This document shows positions 28,650 to 33,504 of a DNA stretch of 64,000 nt, piece by piece (position 1 is the first letter of the stretch; each line of letters begins with the position of its first letter). The notes beneath the pieces were generated by a model. That model was not told where the DNA came from, did no database searches, and worked only from the letters and a program-made list of their open reading frames with translations. This DNA is from an uncultured Bacillales bacterium. GTDB taxonomy: Bacteria; Bacillota_I; Bacilli_A; Acholeplasmatales; Anaeroplasmataceae. The position numbers were made by a program, and so were the translations under genes. The stretch covers positions 7,086 through 71,085 of the forward strand of contig CAMOKL010000004.1 of NCBI GenBank assembly GCA_946617655.1, written 5' to 3'.

Positions 28650-29588
28650 CTAATTCATACCTAATACTTCTTCTTTATGCTTAGGCATTACTACAACACT
28701 TGATGCGTGAAGCATTATAACTTCTTCTTTTGCAAGCTTTGAGTATTCTCTTGAAACTGTACAAGTTAAATATACATAATCTCCATCTTTAACCTTAACA
28801 TCAGTTTCATTTTTTACCTCATATCCTAAGAATTGGATATCTTGTGCACAACAAGTCATAACCTGTCTTCCTACAACAAAATCACCATTCTTTAATGACT
28901 TACGAACAAATACAGGGAATTTAAATGTCTTGTTCTCATATTTCTCAAAATTATCAAAAACCTCAACATACCAAATAGGATAAATATCTTCTTCAAAGAT
29001 AATTTCATCCTTTGATAAATCATAAGGTAGGTCTTCATCTAATCTTGTAGTTAGGGAACCATCAGCTTGTTCAAAGGCAATTTGACATTGCTGATTCATA
29101 GCACGGATTTGTCTTCTAAATGATGCAAGCTCATTAATACCATCACATCTATTAAATATAACAAGGCTTGAATCCTTTAACATACTTTGATATATCTTTT
29201 TCATGTTATTAAACATAACCTTAAATGTAGATGCATCAATTAAAGATATTTGTTGATATATAAGCATATAATCTGGGAATTCTTGATTATCCCAATTAAA
29301 GAATGTGTTATATTCAATAACATATCTATCAGCCATATATTTCTTATCTATTGCTTCCATATATTCAGGAGTAAAATCTGTATCCTTTTCTACATATTCA
29401 ATAGATACCTTGTATTTATCTAGCCATTCCTTATCGTATTCAATTTCGCCTTCCTCGCAACAAATAATAACTGTTGTATTATTTTGATATTCAGGATTAT
29501 TCTCAATAATTTCTTTAATTAATGATGTTTTACCTGATTCAAGGAATCCATTTAATAAGAATAGTGGAACCTCTTTAGTCTTTGGCAT
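28650..29588 (-). CDS. Degenerate CobW-like P-loop domain fused to a TIGR03943/DUF1980-like C-terminal domain
   Basis: N-terminal GFLESGKT and CCEEGE, then IFNRCD; C-terminal GRQVMTCCAQDIQFLG. Confidence 0.75.
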   Translation of the reverse strand: MPKTKEVPLFLLNGFLESGKTSLIKEIIENNPEYQNNTTVIICCEEGEIEYDKEWLDKYKVSIEYVEKDTDFTPEYMEAIDKKYMADRYVIEYNTFFNWDNQEFPDYMLIYQQISLIDASTFKVMFNNMKKIYQSMLKDSSLVIFNRCDGINELASFRRQIRAMNQQCQIAFEQADGSLTTRLDEDLPYDLSKDEIIFEEDIYPIWYVEVFDNFEKYENKTFKFPVFVRKSLKNGDFVVGRQVMTCCAQDIQFLGYEVKNETDVKVKDGDYVYLTCTVSREYSKLAKEEVIMLHASSVVVMPKHKEEVLGMN

Positions 29589-29607: not shown

Positions 29608-30744
29608 TTAAAATAATTTTTTAATATCTTCTTCTTTAATCTTAGAACCAATTACAACAATCTTAGCCATAGGGATTGAATGAGTAGGCTCAAATGATAC
29701 TTCTTCTGGTGTTAATTGGAATAAATACCAATTAGAATCTGTTGCCTCAATTATACCTTTAGCACGTACAATTACACCATACTTACCATTTGCCATATCA
29801 TTAATTAATGACTTAAATTGTTCAATATCATATTTCTTTACTGTTTCAATTCCAACTGATTGGAATACTTCATCTGCGTGATGGTGGTGATGATGATGTT
29901 CTTCATCTTCATCATCGTGATGGTGGTGACAGCTACAGTTTGGATCATCACACTCATCTTCGTCATGGTCGTGGTGATGGTGATGTTCATGTTCTTCATC
30001 TTCATCATCTTCGTCATGGTCATGGTGATGATGGTGATGCTCTTCATCCTCATCATCATGATGGTGGTGGTGACAGCTACAGTTTGGATCATCACATTCA
30101 TCATGATCATGTCCTAACGCATCCTTAATTGCTTCATTATCTAATAATTCTGTATCAAAACCTTCATAAGCCTTAACTAATTCATCATCAGAAAGCTTAG
30201 AAATAGGTGTTGTTACAACTACAGCCTTAGAATTAATTTCTCTTATTACCTCTAATGCTTCTTTTACCTTATCTTCATTTGCAATATCAGTTCTTGATAA
30301 AATTATTGTATGTGCATTAGAAATTTGGTCATTAAAGAATTCACCAAAGTTCTTTGCATACATCTTTGCTTTCTTAGCATCTACTAAACAAACAAGAGAA
30401 TTAATATTCTTACCAAGACCAGCCTTTGTTACTGCCGCAACAATATCAGAAAGCTTACCAACACCTGATGGTTCAATTAAAATACGATCAGGATTTTCTT
30501 GCTTAACTAATTCTCCTAAAGCCTTAGTAAAATCACCAACAAGTGAACAACAAATACATCCTTGGCTTAATTCCTTCATTTCAATTTTTGTATCCTTTAG
30601 GATATCAGTATCAACTGATACTTCACCATACTCATTTTCTACTAATACTACTTTTTCATTTTTAATTTCTGTTTTTAATAATCTTTCAATGAATGTAGTC
30701 TTACCAGCTCCTAAGAAGCCTGAAATAATATCAATTTTTAACAT
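29608..30744 (-). CDS. COG0523/CobW-family metal-chaperone GTPase with a long His-rich insert
   Basis: SGFLGAGKTT, ENEYGE, GCICC, IEPSG and C-terminal RAKG motifs. Probable start ATG at 30744 (MLKIDIIS). Confidence 0.92.
   Translation of the reverse strand: MLKIDIISGFLGAGKTTFIERLLKTEIKNEKVVLVENEYGEVSVDTDILKDTKIEMKELSQGCICCSLVGDFTKALGELVKQENPDRILIEPSGVGKLSDIVAAVTKAGLGKNINSLVCLVDAKKAKMYAKNFGEFFNDQISNAHTIILSRTDIANEDKVKEALEVIREINSKAVVVTTPISKLSDDELVKAYEGFDTELLDNEAIKDALGHDHDECDDPNCSCHHHHHDDEDEEHHHHHHDHDEDDEDEEHEHHHHHDHDEDECDDPNCSCHHHHDDEDEEHHHHHHHADEVFQSVGIETVKKYDIEQFKSLINDMANGKYGVIVRAKGIIEATDSNWYLFQLTPEEVSFEPTHSIPMAKIVVIGSKIKEEDIKKLF
29880..30110 (-). repeat. His/Asp/Glu-coding low-complexity repeat with an internal duplication
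   Basis: An identical 32-bp unit at 29921-29952 and 30065-30096 (144-bp period) encodes CDDPNCSCHHH. Confidence 0.9.
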
Positions 30745-31010
30745 ATTATTACCAACCTTTCGAATACATATTATAGCATTAATATAGATTGTATGCAATA
30801 AAATTAAACCGTTATTACGAAAATAATTGACAGTTAGTTATATAGAGTGCCAAAAAAGAGATAAGTCATTGACTTACCTCTTATGTATATTCTTCTTAAC
30901 TTTATATTTTGTAACCAATAAAAAAGTATACCATTTTTATAGATATACTTTCCTAATTTTTCCGCAGTTTATTCTGCAATGGGACAGTTTTATAATCTCT
31001 AATCCAACTA

Positions 31011-31663
31011 TTATTTAAAAATAAATTGACTCTTAATACAATCATCAATTTTTTCTTCTAGTTCACTCGGTAATTTATTATTCTCTGAATATAAAATATT
31101 AGAATACTTTTTATCATTAGAATCCTTTACAAAAACATTTGTTACTAAAAAGTAACCTGATGCTTTATCAAAGCAATCTTCATCTCTTAATGACTTAACT
31201 ATATAGCATTCACTTTTTGCATTACCAGCAGTATCATATTCATGTTCCATTAATAATGTAAAATATAAATCAGTTGTACCAAACTTAAATGTTGTTGTAC
31301 CAGTCTTAATATCTTCTAGCATAACACTTTGACTTTTAGCCAATTTTGAAATGTCTTGAATATGCTTTACTTTCTTTTCATATAATGCATATGGATGTTC
31401 TGACGAAAAGAAAATATGTGTTTTCTTTAAAGTTCCTCTTACAGCATATTTATAAAAATCATTAGCAGATAATTTAGTATCTACACCAGTTAGATGTTTA
31501 AAGTTTCCTTTTTTAAAAGAAACTTCAATATATCTATTATCAAAACATATAGAAACTTTTTACCAACAACATTATTTTTGAACTCAACTGCTGCTAGATG
31601 AATTTCATTAATTGCATTTGCTTTATTTAGTTCTTTTTGAGTTTGAGTTAAGCTTTTAGCCAT
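31011..31663 (-). pseudogene. PBECR4-like (BECR-fold) nuclease gene with a 1-bp frameshift
   Basis: ATG at 31663 follows an AAGGA RBS and gives MAKSLTQ...KKFLYV. Adding one base to the A4 run at 31542-45 restores FDNRYIEVSFKKGNFKHLTGVD..., which joins the 31011-31343 ORF (217 aa total). NFxHLxG is the PBECR4-type motif. Confidence 0.7.
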
Positions 31664-31677
31664 TATTTTATTTCCTT

Positions 31678-31925
31678 AAAAAAGTTAGGGCTATTTTTCA
31701 AGCCCTAACCAAATCTTTTATATTACTGTGGTTGTAAGCTGGCTGTCAGCTTCAATGTATTTCCATACATTATATGTCGCCAATAATTTAAGTCCTTGGC
31801 GTGGACTACAGTTATGACCAAACTGCAAGGTTCTATATTCTTCCGAATATAACAAGTCTTAGTAATTAACCTGCCTAAGTGCAGTACAGCTTTTACGTGC
31901 CACAACACGGGATATCTCTATCCAC
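31678..31925 (-). ncRNA. Structured ~250-nt RNA upstream of the PBECR4-like gene, ending in a terminator
   Basis: GNRA-capped hairpins at 31910-23, 31834-51 and 31754-71; further stems at 31858-79, 31807-27 and 31736-52; H-type pseudoknot at 31778-31807; terminator at 31678-31709. Confidence 0.7.
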
Positions 31926-31929
31926 TTAT

Positions 31930-31958
31930 AATATAGCAAAAAAAGGAAAAATTGTAAA
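31930..31958 (-). promoter_or_regulatory. Promoter of the ncRNA-PBECR4 unit
   Basis: Minus strand reads TTTACA, 17-bp spacer, TATATT. Confidence 0.7.
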
Positions 31959-32115: not shown

Positions 32116-33504
32116 TTATTCTTCATCTTCTAATGCAGGATGAGCAGTATCATCAGCTACATCAGTAGTTTCTTTATTTGCTTCTTCTACTGTAGGAGTC
32201 TTTGTAACTTCTTCAACAGGAGCATCAGCAACTTTTGTCTCTTCTACTTTAGCTTCTTCATAAGGAGCCTTTGCAGTTTCAACCTTTTCAACTTGTACTT
32301 CAGCTGGTTTAATTGTTGGCTTTTCTTCTACCTTAGCTTCTACTTGAGGAGTAGGACGCTTAATAACCTTTGCCTTAGGTACTTCATTAACCTTTGGTTC
32401 AGCCTTTGCAACTGGCTTCTTAACTTGTGCAGTTTCTCCACCAGTCTTTTGACGACGCTTTCTTTCTTCATATAAAGCACGAATTCTCTTAATATTTCTT
32501 AAGCATTCTGCTGCCTTAGCACCATCGCCAATAGCCATATAATATGTCTTTGCAGCTGCATAATTCTTTCTTCTTAATAGACGGTCTGCAGCTCTCTTTA
32601 ACTTTTCAGTTGCTCTTTGCTTAGAACCTTCAGAAGTATACTTTTCTGTTAATACCTTACAGTAAATATCATATCCTTCTTTTGTTCTTCTCTTCTTAGA
32701 ATCATATCCCCAGCAAGATTCATATAGATAACCTAAATTGAATAATGCATCTGGGTTCTTTAATTCAATTGCCTTCTTTAAATATTTTTCTGCAAATTCT
32801 AGGTTCTTAGTTTGAGTATATAAGTAACCTAAGTTATTGTAGATGATACCTCTTGATTCATCATCTGATACACCTCTTGATTCCTTTAAGTCAAGTGGTA
32901 AGCAGATTGAATAATAGTTAATTGCTTTATCATTATCTTGTAATGTTTGATAAGCATCAGCAATTCTTTCCTTAACTTCAAGATCATGAATCTTAAATAA
33001 TTTAATTAAATAGCATAATGCCCATACATAGCTTTCTTGTGAGAATAAGCTGAATGCAAGATTACGATATTTCTTTCTATTAAATCCATTAATCTTAATC
33101 TTATTAAATCCACCAACAATAATCTGACAGATATCGTTAGCTAAGTTTTCAATTGGGTAACCATCAACTAGCTGAATTTCATTTACAGGATATTTACAGC
33201 TTTCTTGTTCATTATCCTTTTCAGCATAACAGCATGTAACTTGAACATGTGCTTGATGAGCTTTTTTAATTTCTGGTAGATATTCAGTGAATCCAAACGC
33301 ATCACTAATATGTAAAATAATTAATCCACTAGAGTCCTTAACATCTCTTGCGATTTCAGCATCTGAAGCCTCACCTTTTTCATATGAGTGTACTTCTACC
33401 TTTTTATCTGTTAATATGTCCTCAAGATAGTTAGCTGTTTCTTCATCTTCTGATAAATAAACAACTGTTACATAATTATTCTTTTGCATAATACCGACCT
33501 CCAA
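32116..33504 (-). CDS. TIR-like N-terminal domain + TPR/SEL1 repeats + acidic Pro/Glu/Lys-rich tail
   Basis: TPR/SEL1 patterns (IIYNNLGYLY...AEKYLKKA, DALFNLGYLYE). The N-terminal ~125 aa has a TIR-like beta/alpha pattern (weaker call). Confidence 0.6.
   Translation of the reverse strand: MEVGIMQKNNYVTVVYLSEDEETANYLEDILTDKKVEVHSYEKGEASDAEIARDVKDSSGLIILHISDAFGFTEYLPEIKKAHQAHVQVTCCYAEKDNEQESCKYPVNEIQLVDGYPIENLANDICQIIVGGFNKIKINGFNRKKYRNLAFSLFSQESYVWALCYLIKLFKIHDLEVKERIADAYQTLQDNDKAINYYSICLPLDLKESRGVSDDESRGIIYNNLGYLYTQTKNLEFAEKYLKKAIELKNPDALFNLGYLYESCWGYDSKKRRTKEGYDIYCKVLTEKYTSEGSKQRATEKLKRAADRLLRRKNYAAAKTYYMAIGDGAKAAECLRNIKRIRALYEERKRRQKTGGETAQVKKPVAKAEPKVNEVPKAKVIKRPTPQVEAKVEEKPTIKPAEVQVEKVETAKAPYEEAKVEETKVADAPVEEVTKTPTVEEANKETTDVADDTAHPALEDEE

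Follow-up and report, generated by a model that had tools for sequence, protein, structure and literature searches.

The minus strand of the window, by which we mean the whole stretch of 64,000 nucleotides analyzed here (contig CAMOKL010000004.1 of an uncultured Bacillales bacterium), carries between positions 31958 and 31011 a gene for a protein of the PBECR4 family that is preceded by a structured non-coding RNA of ~245 nt. A sequence-only reading of this DNA had proposed that the two form a type III-like system in which the RNA acts as the antitoxin of a PBECR4-like nuclease. The locus begins with a sigma-70-type promoter (31930-31958), whose -35 box TTTACA (31958-31953), 17-nt spacer with a TG extension and -10 box TATATT (31935-31930) give 10 of 12 matches, and the transcription start of the RNA is predicted at ~31923. 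The RNA extends from a hairpin termed P1 to the end of the T run of an intrinsic terminator (31678-31923); the terminator, GGUUAGGGCU-UGAAAAAU-AGCCCUAACU followed by a U run, occupies 31678-31710 (stem, 31710-31683). Downstream of it, a ribosome-binding site (RBS), AAGGAAA (31671-31677), lies 7 nt 5' of the ATG at 31663, with which the PBECR4 open reading frame (ORF; 31011-31663) starts. Promoter, terminator and RBS, as well as the hairpins, the stems and the H-type pseudoknot listed in the sequence-only reading, were all recovered on the minus strand at the positions proposed there.

The ORF of the window runs for 57 codons (31663-31490) and then continues in a second frame to 31011; when read through, it encodes 217 amino acids. 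The frameshift, which had been noticed before, was located by alignment at 31542-31545 (minus strand), where the window has TTTT and its homologues and related strains have TTTTT, and through which the homologues read ...LYVFDNRYIEV.... Contigs of the same locus in three independent sheep and gut metagenome runs (X1-X3) contain one A inserted after 31541 (plus strand) that keeps the frame intact, and an intact 217-amino acid protein on record is 98% identical to the repaired ORF. The window copy reflects either a strain-specific loss of one base in a homopolymer or an assembly error, and the family is not generally broken. When compared with the window, the contigs from X2 and X3 also show single-base insertions after 31653 (ORF codon 4) and after 31937 (promoter spacer), which indicates that start-codon usage and spacer length differ among strains.

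The repaired ORF matched the Pfam family PF18813 (PBECR4) with 72.5 bits (cut-off, 27; E = 7.5e-20; profile positions 2-187 of 188) and no other Pfam family, in agreement with its earlier description as PBECR4-like. PF18813 has been described as a BECR-fold, metal-independent endoribonuclease characterised by a His located in a helix and by a C-terminal Thr/Ser (Iyer et al. 2017, PMC5512222). The homologues of the repaired protein form 95 clusters at 38-98% identity, all of which carry PF18813, and an alignment of 39 sequences revealed the invariant residues H57, H90, K98, T121, T131, S158, R160 and D163. All of these residues except D163 are compatible with the BECR pattern of His plus Thr/Ser/Lys/Arg, and they may act in the active site. 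An AlphaFold2 model computed from the same alignment reached a predicted local distance difference test score of 93 and a predicted template modeling score of 0.86. A profile hmmsearch against the PDB sequences gave no match, and tblastn against phage GenBank records gave no PBECR4 relative; two uncharacterised viral proteins in BFVD and one family of unknown function in PHROGs match PBECR4. The assignment of the protein as a ribonuclease (RNase), which draws on the Pfam family and the invariant residues, is plausible.

The expression signals are conserved among homologous loci. Of 110 distinct upstream regions of homologous loci, 85 have a promoter that matches at 9 or more of 12 positions and lies at the same distance, with the -10 box ending 17-23 nt 5' of the second hairpin of the RNA (P2), and a hairpin terminator with a T run lies 3' of the RNA core in 58 of 59 distinct homologous loci; in the single locus scored as terminator-less an imperfect hairpin is visible. 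The end of the terminator stem is separated from the PBECR4 start codon by a median of 20 nt in the distinct homologous loci, which leaves no space for a second promoter and implies that PBECR4 is transcribed only via read-through. In an RNA-type run (X22), the sole contig over 6.5 kb of a Collinsella aerofaciens locus is a 257-nt piece whose first base is the start of P1, 7 nt 3' of a GATAAT box and equivalent to the transcription start predicted in the window, and which extends across the RNA and the terminator into the ORF by 14 nt. This contig, of low depth and read at the contig level, agrees with an abundant short transcript from the Collinsella locus. Two further RNA runs likewise have their best coverage on the RNA, and the metatranscriptome runs X31-X33 yielded contigs tens of kb long with flat depth.

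Fold and internal repeat of the RNA

The minimum free energy of the window RNA is -73 kcal/mol, compared with -55 +/- 4.2 kcal/mol for shuffled sequences (z = -4.25), and none of 200 shuffles was as good. A search with the family core by nhmmer matched 31910-31728 (E = 1.7e-36) as the sole copy in the window. Pairing was scored on a MAFFT alignment (A2) of 48 distinct homologous RNAs, which comprises 12 helices, 58 pairs and 2784 cells. Standard pairs occupy 96.7% of the cells, as against 36-45% when the 3' partners were slid by 1-3 columns, both-side compensatory changes occur at 36 of the 58 pairs, and none of 500 shuffles reached any of five measures. The structure perceived in the window by the sequence-only reading is therefore conserved among PBECR4 loci. 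The window RNA itself keeps all 12 helices and 54 of the 58 pairs, and its promoter and terminator are also intact.

The fold predicted from this covariation is made of three H-type pseudoknots, two capped hairpins and two long-range loop pairings. At its 5' end, hairpin P1 (GGAUA-GAGA-UAUCC, 31910-31923) is variable in sequence and always there among the homologues, and it is followed by hairpin P2 (CGUG-UUGUGG-CACG, 31896-31909), which shows CG/UA covariation. The P2 loop UGUGG pairs with the tail CCACA at the 3' end of the RNA (31732-31728) in the first long-range pairing, PK-A. In 127 distinct full-length RNAs, loop position 2 and tail position 5 are A:U in 56, G:U in 31, G:C in 17, U:A in 2 and A:C in none, and loop position 4 is C:G in 118, A:U in 3 and U:A in 2, the window belonging to the U:A group (GUGG:CCAC); PK-A thus covaries at two positions and appears well supported. 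The second long-range pairing, PK-B, joins the strand GCUGU (31886-31890) to the last hairpin's loop ACAGC (31746-31742). A single variant (GUUGU:ACAAC) is fully compensated, a U-G wobble occurs in 14 sequences and the remainder are invariant, which gives this predicted pairing moderate support; its connectors have zero length, and PK-B may be an alternative pairing that does not form simultaneously with the last hairpin.

Between these elements, the first H-type pseudoknot (PK1, 31858-31884) combines CUGC (31884-31881) with GCAG (31874-31871) and CUUAG (31879-31875) with CUAAG (31862-31858); its stem 1 shows GC to CG changes in 6 sequences, and 4 of the 5 pairs of its stem 2 are compensatory. 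Next comes hairpin H1 (UAUAUUC-GGAA-GAAUAUA, 31834-31851), with 5 of 7 pairs compensatory and a loop that is usually GNRA-like among the homologues. The pseudoknot PK2 (31808-31831) is formed by ACC/GGU and CAGUU/AACUG (the latter at ~31824-31809), its register in the window being read off the window's own sequence, and 6 of the 7 pairs of its helices (7 and 8) are compensatory. PK3 (AGUCC-A-CGCCAA-GGACU-UAAAUUA-UUGGCG, 31778-31807) comprises helices 9 and 10, with 99% of the cells paired and 9 of 11 pairs compensatory, and it is followed by hairpin H2 (AAUGUAU-GGAA-AUACAUU, 31754-31771), the repeat partner of H1, in which 7 of 7 pairs are compensatory. The last hairpin, AAGCUG-ACAGC-CAGCUU (31752-31736), whose stem is invariant in all 48 sequences, and the tail ACAACCAC complete the RNA (31728-31752). 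They form the most conserved stretch of the family, GGCUGACAGCCAGCAKAAAAC, in which a core GCUG-ACAGC-CAGC is followed by AKAAAAC and the tail. All the elements of the earlier inventory are thus part of the fold; four pairings had been missed, namely stem 1 of PK1, stem 1 of PK2, PK-A and PK-B.

The RNA corresponds to no Rfam entry. At the gathering score, Rfam 15 gave no match in the whole 64-kb window, at E<=10 the region had chance-level matches to the terminator only, and no match lay over the RNAs of 20 homologous loci; no riboswitch, ribozyme or other family was thus matched in the window or by the RNAs of these loci. A small protein hidden in the RNA region was considered and rejected: the lengths of the core show no preference for any of the three classes modulo 3, which argues that no peptide is encoded and no reading frame is conserved, and the substitutions in the stems are compensatory.

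The RNA had been described as a single non-repeated unit, a view that has to be abandoned. As judged from the homologues, it is composed of two degenerate ~80-nt units, each of which combines a pseudoknot, a capped hairpin, the motif GCGSC and one more knot or hairpin. In homologues, H1 plus its 3' flank is repeated directly as H2 plus its 3' flank over 22-46 nt, with 80-100% identity and a spacing of 79-82 nt, and PK2 and PK3 resemble one another. The program TRF detected no repeat in the window RNA because the repeat is too diverged in this AT-rich window, which explains the impression gained from the window alone. The identity of H1 and H2 is 0.77 within a genome and 0.68 between genomes, a difference that none of 5000 permutations reached, and the loop types of the two hairpins switch together (GGAA/GGAA, GACA/GACA, GGCA/GGCA, GAAA/GAAA and GCAA/GCAA). 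Such concerted change would be expected for two copies of one predicted protein-binding site. RNAs with only one unit, which have lost ~80 nt via recombination between H1 and H2, occur in at least two lineages (the L097 and L183 groups). Separately, we observed that in the one-unit loci L097, L103, L109, L110 and related, L183 and L185 PBECR4 is always truncated or absent.

Linkage of the RNA to PBECR4

The distribution of the pair was analyzed in a scan of one genome per species with an alignment-profile query, which was needed because a single-protein query found nothing; it returned 119 loci, of which 80 were fetched. A homologous RNA on the same strand ends ~80 nt 5' of the ORF in 73 of these 80 protein-seeded loci, which include Lachnospiraceae, Oscillospiraceae, Negativicutes, Collinsella and Eggerthellaceae bins. 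As to the seven loci lacking the RNA, five are on contigs that end <230 nt 5' of the ORF, in one (L067) the ORF misses its first 42 codons, and in the other (L078) both RNA and ORF are damaged; an intact PBECR4 of the window's clade without the RNA was not observed among the 80 loci. The succession of promoter, RNA, terminator, RBS and PBECR4 is kept across ~130 distinct loci, and the type III-like layout first proposed for the window alone is thereby extended to the family. The RNA is more conserved than the protein, with 68-87% identity where the proteins share 40-55%.

All-against-all clustering of the neighbouring ORFs showed that PBECR4 alone is common to the loci, and it revealed no conserved third gene such as a protein antitoxin or an integrase. 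The flanks are unrelated housekeeping genes (Tex, TetR/acetolactate synthase, TRAP transporter; those of the window encode a TPR protein and CobW-like GTPases), which together with the previous result argues for a self-contained two-part cassette inserted in many places. Identical or near-identical cassettes with common flanks were observed in isolates of Coprococcus, Dorea, Maccoyibacter, Gallintestinimicrobium and Blautia (L013, L016-L019, L080), and the sharing of cassettes by five Lachnospiraceae genera suggests recent transfer on a mobile element. In a Blautia locus with a slightly different RNA (L025), a group II intron domain match lies ~500 nt upstream of the RNA (L025:2147-2216), and Collinsella aerofaciens carries a second full copy of the RNA at a contig end, 3.4 kb downstream of the first (L062:6315-6499).

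When the search was started from the RNA, the invariant 21-mer GGCTGACRGCCAGCADAAAAC was found in at least 125 loci, that is, 5 in IMG/VR and at least 120 metagenome contigs. Among the matches listed, 59 have PBECR4 within 50-400 nt, 11 are on contigs that are too short and 55 are without PBECR4, which means that the gene is lost or truncated in 55 of 114 informative RNA-seeded loci. The states found in these 55 loci include ORFs reduced to the first ~11 codons, RNAs fused to the last ~30 codons, ORFs cut after ~30 residues, and replacement of the ORF by other genes. Many of the orphan RNAs are full and retain 55-58 of the 58 pairs, and some do not differ from RNAs that have the ORF. That the RNA is often found without PBECR4, whereas PBECR4 is never found without the RNA, is predicted by an antidote-poison pair, in which the toxin cannot outlive its antidote; as evidence for such a pair in these loci we give this asymmetry moderate weight. 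The window copy, with an intact RNA and a frameshifted PBECR4 gene, fits the asymmetry.

The same decay could mean that the window copy is a dead remnant, i.e. a frameshifted gene with a leftover leader that has no present function in the organism. The frameshift at 31545-31542 speaks for it, and so does the observation that the ORF is damaged or missing in ~10% of the protein-seeded and, among the matches listed, in about half of the RNA-seeded loci. We consider this explanation very improbable, because the promoter, the 12 helices and the terminator of the window are intact and the same locus appears with its frame restored in three metagenome runs, so that the loss may be strain-specific or an assembly error; moreover, it concerns the window copy only and not the family.

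Some copies, orphan RNAs among them, have as neighbours Abi_2, an AAA_21/AAA_15 ATPase with a Toprim-like partner, or DUF4869, and some are on IMG/VR contigs; Abi_2, AAA_21/Toprim-like and other toxin-antitoxin (TA)-like neighbours are typical company of defence and TA genes. The Abi_2 genes located 3' of the RNA in L102 and L191 were considered as users of the RNA and rejected, since a separate promoter follows the RNA, and they were treated as neighbours. At the orphan RNA of L153, an adjoining 156-amino acid ORF (MKKTGFYIIKDQFFEDMNDPYLKGNKSGNRPHYY...) on the opposite strand, 596-1066 nt downstream, resembles by eye the ToxN/AbiQ type and has no Pfam match.

Regarding the neighbours in the window, a TPR/Sel1-repeat protein of 462 amino acids is encoded upstream (32116-33504, minus strand); it has a low-complexity C-terminal tail of ~100 amino acids rich in Lys, Glu, Ala, Pro and Val, and its gene ends with a perfect 12-bp palindromic terminator (32111-32084). 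Downstream lie two adjoining CobW/COG0523-type GTPase genes (29608-30798 and 28650-29588, minus strand). The first encodes a His/Asp/Glu-rich insert of ~100 amino acids with HHHHH runs and two CDDPNCSCHHHH motifs, and the second is fused to a C-terminal DUF1980 domain; together they resemble a pair of metal (zinc) chaperones transcribed from a promoter of their own, and they have no link to the RNA. A cobalamin or other riboswitch serving these CobW-like genes was also rejected, since two terminators plus a separate promoter intervene between PBECR4 and CobW and the RNA follows PBECR4 into unrelated contexts.

A second clade of PBECR4 proteins, with at least 95 clusters that all carry PF18813, is associated with a different RNA. 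The sole plasmid match, on pCY360 of Butyrivibrio proteoclasticus B316 (NC_014389.1), is annotated as a PBECR4 domain protein and shares 38.6% identity. It is preceded by an RNA of ~200 nt (RNA-B, L216:3772-3994) in the same layout of promoter, RNA, terminator and RBS as in the window. The profile of the first RNA family did not detect the pCY360 RNA, which is strongly structured (z = -3.99) and closed by CACUGG/CCAGUG. Five clade-B loci sampled over 52-68% identity all have RNA-B, with covariation, terminator and RBS (RNA-B loci: L216 from pCY360, L217, L219-L221 and L223), and Rfam matched nothing over RNA-B in five clade-B loci. RNA-B contains two H-type pseudoknots in the format of PK1 and PK3 (5 bp, 1 nt, 6 bp, 0 nt, 4-7 nt), GUUGC-A-CACAGA-GCAAC-ACAAUAA-UCUGUG and AUCC-A-GUAUGA-GGAU-UAGG-UCAUAC. 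That the RNA differs by protein clade while the layout and the pseudoknot module are constant argues for a protein-specific partner and not for a sensor of a fixed metabolite.

Comparison with known systems and proposed function

In the type III TA systems ToxIN, CptIN and TenpIN, one promoter drives a repeated pseudoknot RNA, a Rho-independent terminator sets the RNA:toxin ratio, and an endoribonuclease is produced by read-through (Blower et al. 2012, PMC3401426; PMC4627078); the antitoxin RNA consists of 2-5.5 near-identical tandem repeats of 34-45 nt (PMC3401426; PMC4627078). The locus of the window resembles them in that the RNA lies directly 5' of PBECR4 on the same strand, with one promoter and a Rho-independent terminator between RNA and gene, in that the RNA units are predicted to fold as pseudoknots (three of H type here, supported by covariation), and in that each locus is a small autonomous cassette, borne by a chromosome, plasmid or prophage and often amid defence genes. 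It differs from them in its toxin, which is PBECR4, of predicted BECR fold, instead of ToxN/AbiQ, CptN or TenpN, and in its RNA, where two degenerate ~80-nt units (22-46 nt in common) are welded by the long-range pairings into a body of ~190 nt instead of forming tandem repeats.

A like gene order is offered by AbiF-RCd22 of Clostridioides difficile and the Prevotellaceae AbiF-non-coding RNA (ncRNA) loci, which consist of promoter, ncRNA, terminator, RBS and toxin, with no second promoter (PMC12373285 / bioRxiv 2025.04.15.648962). RCd22 is an abundant short RNA whose two abiF motifs bind an AbiF dimer, and it represses in cis by termination and neutralises in trans by binding (PMC12373285). 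A two-copy motif for a homodimeric RNase that acts in cis as well as in trans is what we propose likewise for the PBECR4 RNA. The AbiF toxin, however, is an Abi_2/HEPN protein, and its RNA of ~100-130 nt has two simple abiF hairpin motifs (RF03085), whereas the PBECR4 RNA is twice as long, contains five pseudoknot-type pairings and has no RF03085 match even at E<=10. The cassette is thus, as far as its sequence can tell, like type III and AbiF-RCd22 systems in every visible feature and yet a member of neither family, because the toxin family differs, the RNA matches neither the repeats nor RF03085, and it lacks the tandem repetition that defines type III antitoxins.

PBECR domains are known as injected offensive effectors, fused in giant proteins or solo in phages, and no RNA partner or immunity factor has been described for them (Iyer et al. 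2017, PMC5512222). The window protein shares with these polyvalent-protein domains its membership in PF18813 and the prediction of a metal-independent RNase with a conserved helix His and C-terminal Thr/Ser; it differs in being encoded by a stand-alone chromosomal or plasmid gene with a dedicated RNA always upstream. Among the papers covered, a full-text literature search found no report that links PBECR4 or the PBECR family to an RNA, in agreement with the sequence-only reading, which had known of no RNA antitoxin for PBECR4.

The locus also resembles a terminating riboswitch, with its large, conserved and structured 5' RNA, intrinsic terminator and downstream ORF. Accordingly, the RNA could act as a leader in cis only, either as a riboswitch or as an attenuator that senses a protein or tRNA, and in response to a signal such as a metabolite, an alarmone or a phage-induced nucleotide it would gate read-through into PBECR4 without directly inhibiting the protein. 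Such a leader would account for an RNA that is always on the same strand and directly 5' of the ORF with a terminator between them, for a size, a pseudoknot density and long invariant single-stranded stretches like those of large aptamers, and for an RNA more conserved than the protein; RCd22, too, works in cis through termination. However, a riboswitch-type antiterminator left no sign. For helices joining a terminator arm to the core, the greatest length is 6.9 nt, as compared with 6.7-7.1 nt for shuffled arms, with no sequence at p<0.05, and the best core partners of the terminator arms are scattered at positions that are inconsistent among homologues. No conserved antiterminator or alternative terminator pairing was thus found, and a linker that varies between 12 and 25 nt in the alignment of 48 RNAs separates the core from the terminator. 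Neither the lack of an Rfam riboswitch match, nor the change of RNA in the second PBECR4 clade, unexpected for a fixed-ligand sensor, nor the concerted evolution of the paired hairpins favours a leader, and free-standing orphan copies of the RNA keep their own promoter and terminator, unlike a riboswitch. Furthermore, the target would be a lone, predicted conflict-type nuclease gene and not a metabolic or transport gene. We therefore regard a purely cis-acting leader as possible and rather unlikely.

A different kind of kinship was observed in a human gut metagenome contig (L111:2950-3230), where an RNA lies 5' of an Abi_2 (PF07751) gene and has only its frame in common with the PBECR4 RNA. 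The common frame comprises P1, P2 (loop CAAG, complementary to the CUUG tail), the strand AAGCUG and, at the end, GGCUGACAGCCAGCAGAAAAC; the interior consists of two different 76-nt direct repeats that are 84% identical, and no abiF motif was found in this RNA, even at E<=10. This resemblance hints at a wider RNA superfamily serving unrelated toxins. It can also be taken in favour of another role of the RNA, namely that of a positive partner (scaffold, sensor or guide) of a ribonucleoprotein effector, needed by PBECR4 for targeting or licensing and not as an antidote, inasmuch as the same RNA frame with different inner repeats precedes an Abi_2 (HEPN) gene. The strict linkage and the elaborate, highly conserved fold would suit that role, and the literature offers a precedent in AbiF-ncRNA complexes as ancestors of RNA-guided nucleases, Cas13 being thought to derive from AbiF plus an RNA. 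On the other hand, the RNA has no variable guide-like segment of useful length, its variable parts being short linkers and the P1 stem, the terminator would yield a large molar excess of RNA, which suits an inhibitor, and losses of the toxin gene are much commoner than losses of the RNA. A positive role of this kind appears to us quite improbable.

Taken together, these results lead us to propose that the locus is probably, on balance, a new type III-like RNA-antitoxin/RNase-toxin module, of the TA or abortive-infection kind and horizontally mobile, in which both the toxin family and the RNA would be new. The data above show the anatomy of the locus, a conserved and covarying fold, a strict one-sided linkage, the place of the terminator and expression of the RNA. 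What we infer in the following scheme is that PBECR4 is an RNase, that it is toxic and that it binds the RNA directly, together with the stoichiometry and the trigger, and the antitoxin role, i.e. toxicity and its neutralisation, is suggested by the layout and by the pattern of gene loss. A constitutive sigma-70 promoter would give rise to the ~245-nt RNA with a compact body of two ~80-nt units, each with an H-type pseudoknot and a tetraloop-capped hairpin, tied by the two long-range loop pairings. Most transcripts would end at the intrinsic terminator, leaving the RNA in excess, and PBECR4, having no promoter of its own, would be expressed from the read-through fraction only. The predicted metal-independent BECR-type endoribonuclease would then be bound and held inactive, with one protomer per RNA unit. 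If the supply of RNA dropped or the RNA was destroyed, e.g. when a phage induces shut-off or the element is lost, the nuclease thus set free would cut cellular or phage RNA and growth would stop.

Several observations weigh against an antitoxin/toxin module. No PADLOC or NCBIfam model matches the PBECR4 ORF. As to the term nuclease in the sequence-only reading, the PBECR4 family name and the conserved His, Lys and Thr speak for it, and a structural match does not: Foldseek comparison of the AlphaFold2 model with the PDB returned no solved structure at E<=1e-3, a search in which small remodelled BECR cores are easily missed. The X22 contig reaches ~25 nt beyond the terminator, at low depth. Known type III antitoxins are much smaller, simpler and less conserved than this RNA, whose repeats are degenerate instead of tandem and near-identical. 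Its conservation above that of the protein suggests constraints beyond holding a protein, and gene conversion alone could explain the concerted evolution of H1 and H2. The persistence of orphan RNAs is weak evidence for such a module, because most orphans arose by recent deletion and were found by a search that depended on an intact 3' motif.

Because simple sequestration does not account for how large, how densely knotted and how conserved in sequence the RNA is, a reading of the RNA as a sensor as well as an antidote was kept. According to this tentative extension, which we hold to be unlikely as it stands, PBECR4 and its RNA would represent a new class of RNA-protein conflict module, in which a riboswitch-sized RNA, pseudoknotted five times, would hold two RNase protomers inactive and set them free when a phage product or a small signal disrupted or cut it, and its frame would be reusable for unrelated toxins. 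The reusable chassis appears to consist of P1, P2, the AAGCUG strand, the GGCUGACAGCCAGC hairpin and the tail that pairs with the P2 loop, with inner modules that differ between the RNA preceding PBECR4 here and that preceding Abi_2/HEPN in L111.

If the RNA is indeed the antitoxin of PBECR4, a BECR-fold nuclease held by an RNA would represent a new toxin fold among the few RNA-antitoxin systems (ToxN-like, the recent AbiF and AvcD), and a first functional context would be provided for the stand-alone PBECR4 genes that are frequent in Collinsella and in the gut Firmicutes of humans and ruminants. With three predicted H-type pseudoknots and two long-range loop pairings in ~190 nt, the RNA would be among the most intricate bacterial RNAs of that size and a good structural target, and the family may provide a compact orthogonal pair of RNase and RNA inhibitor for practical use. 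The second RNA that accompanies the second PBECR4 clade and the related frame that precedes Abi_2 would bear on the co-evolution of RNA and protein and on the origin of RNA-guided nucleases.

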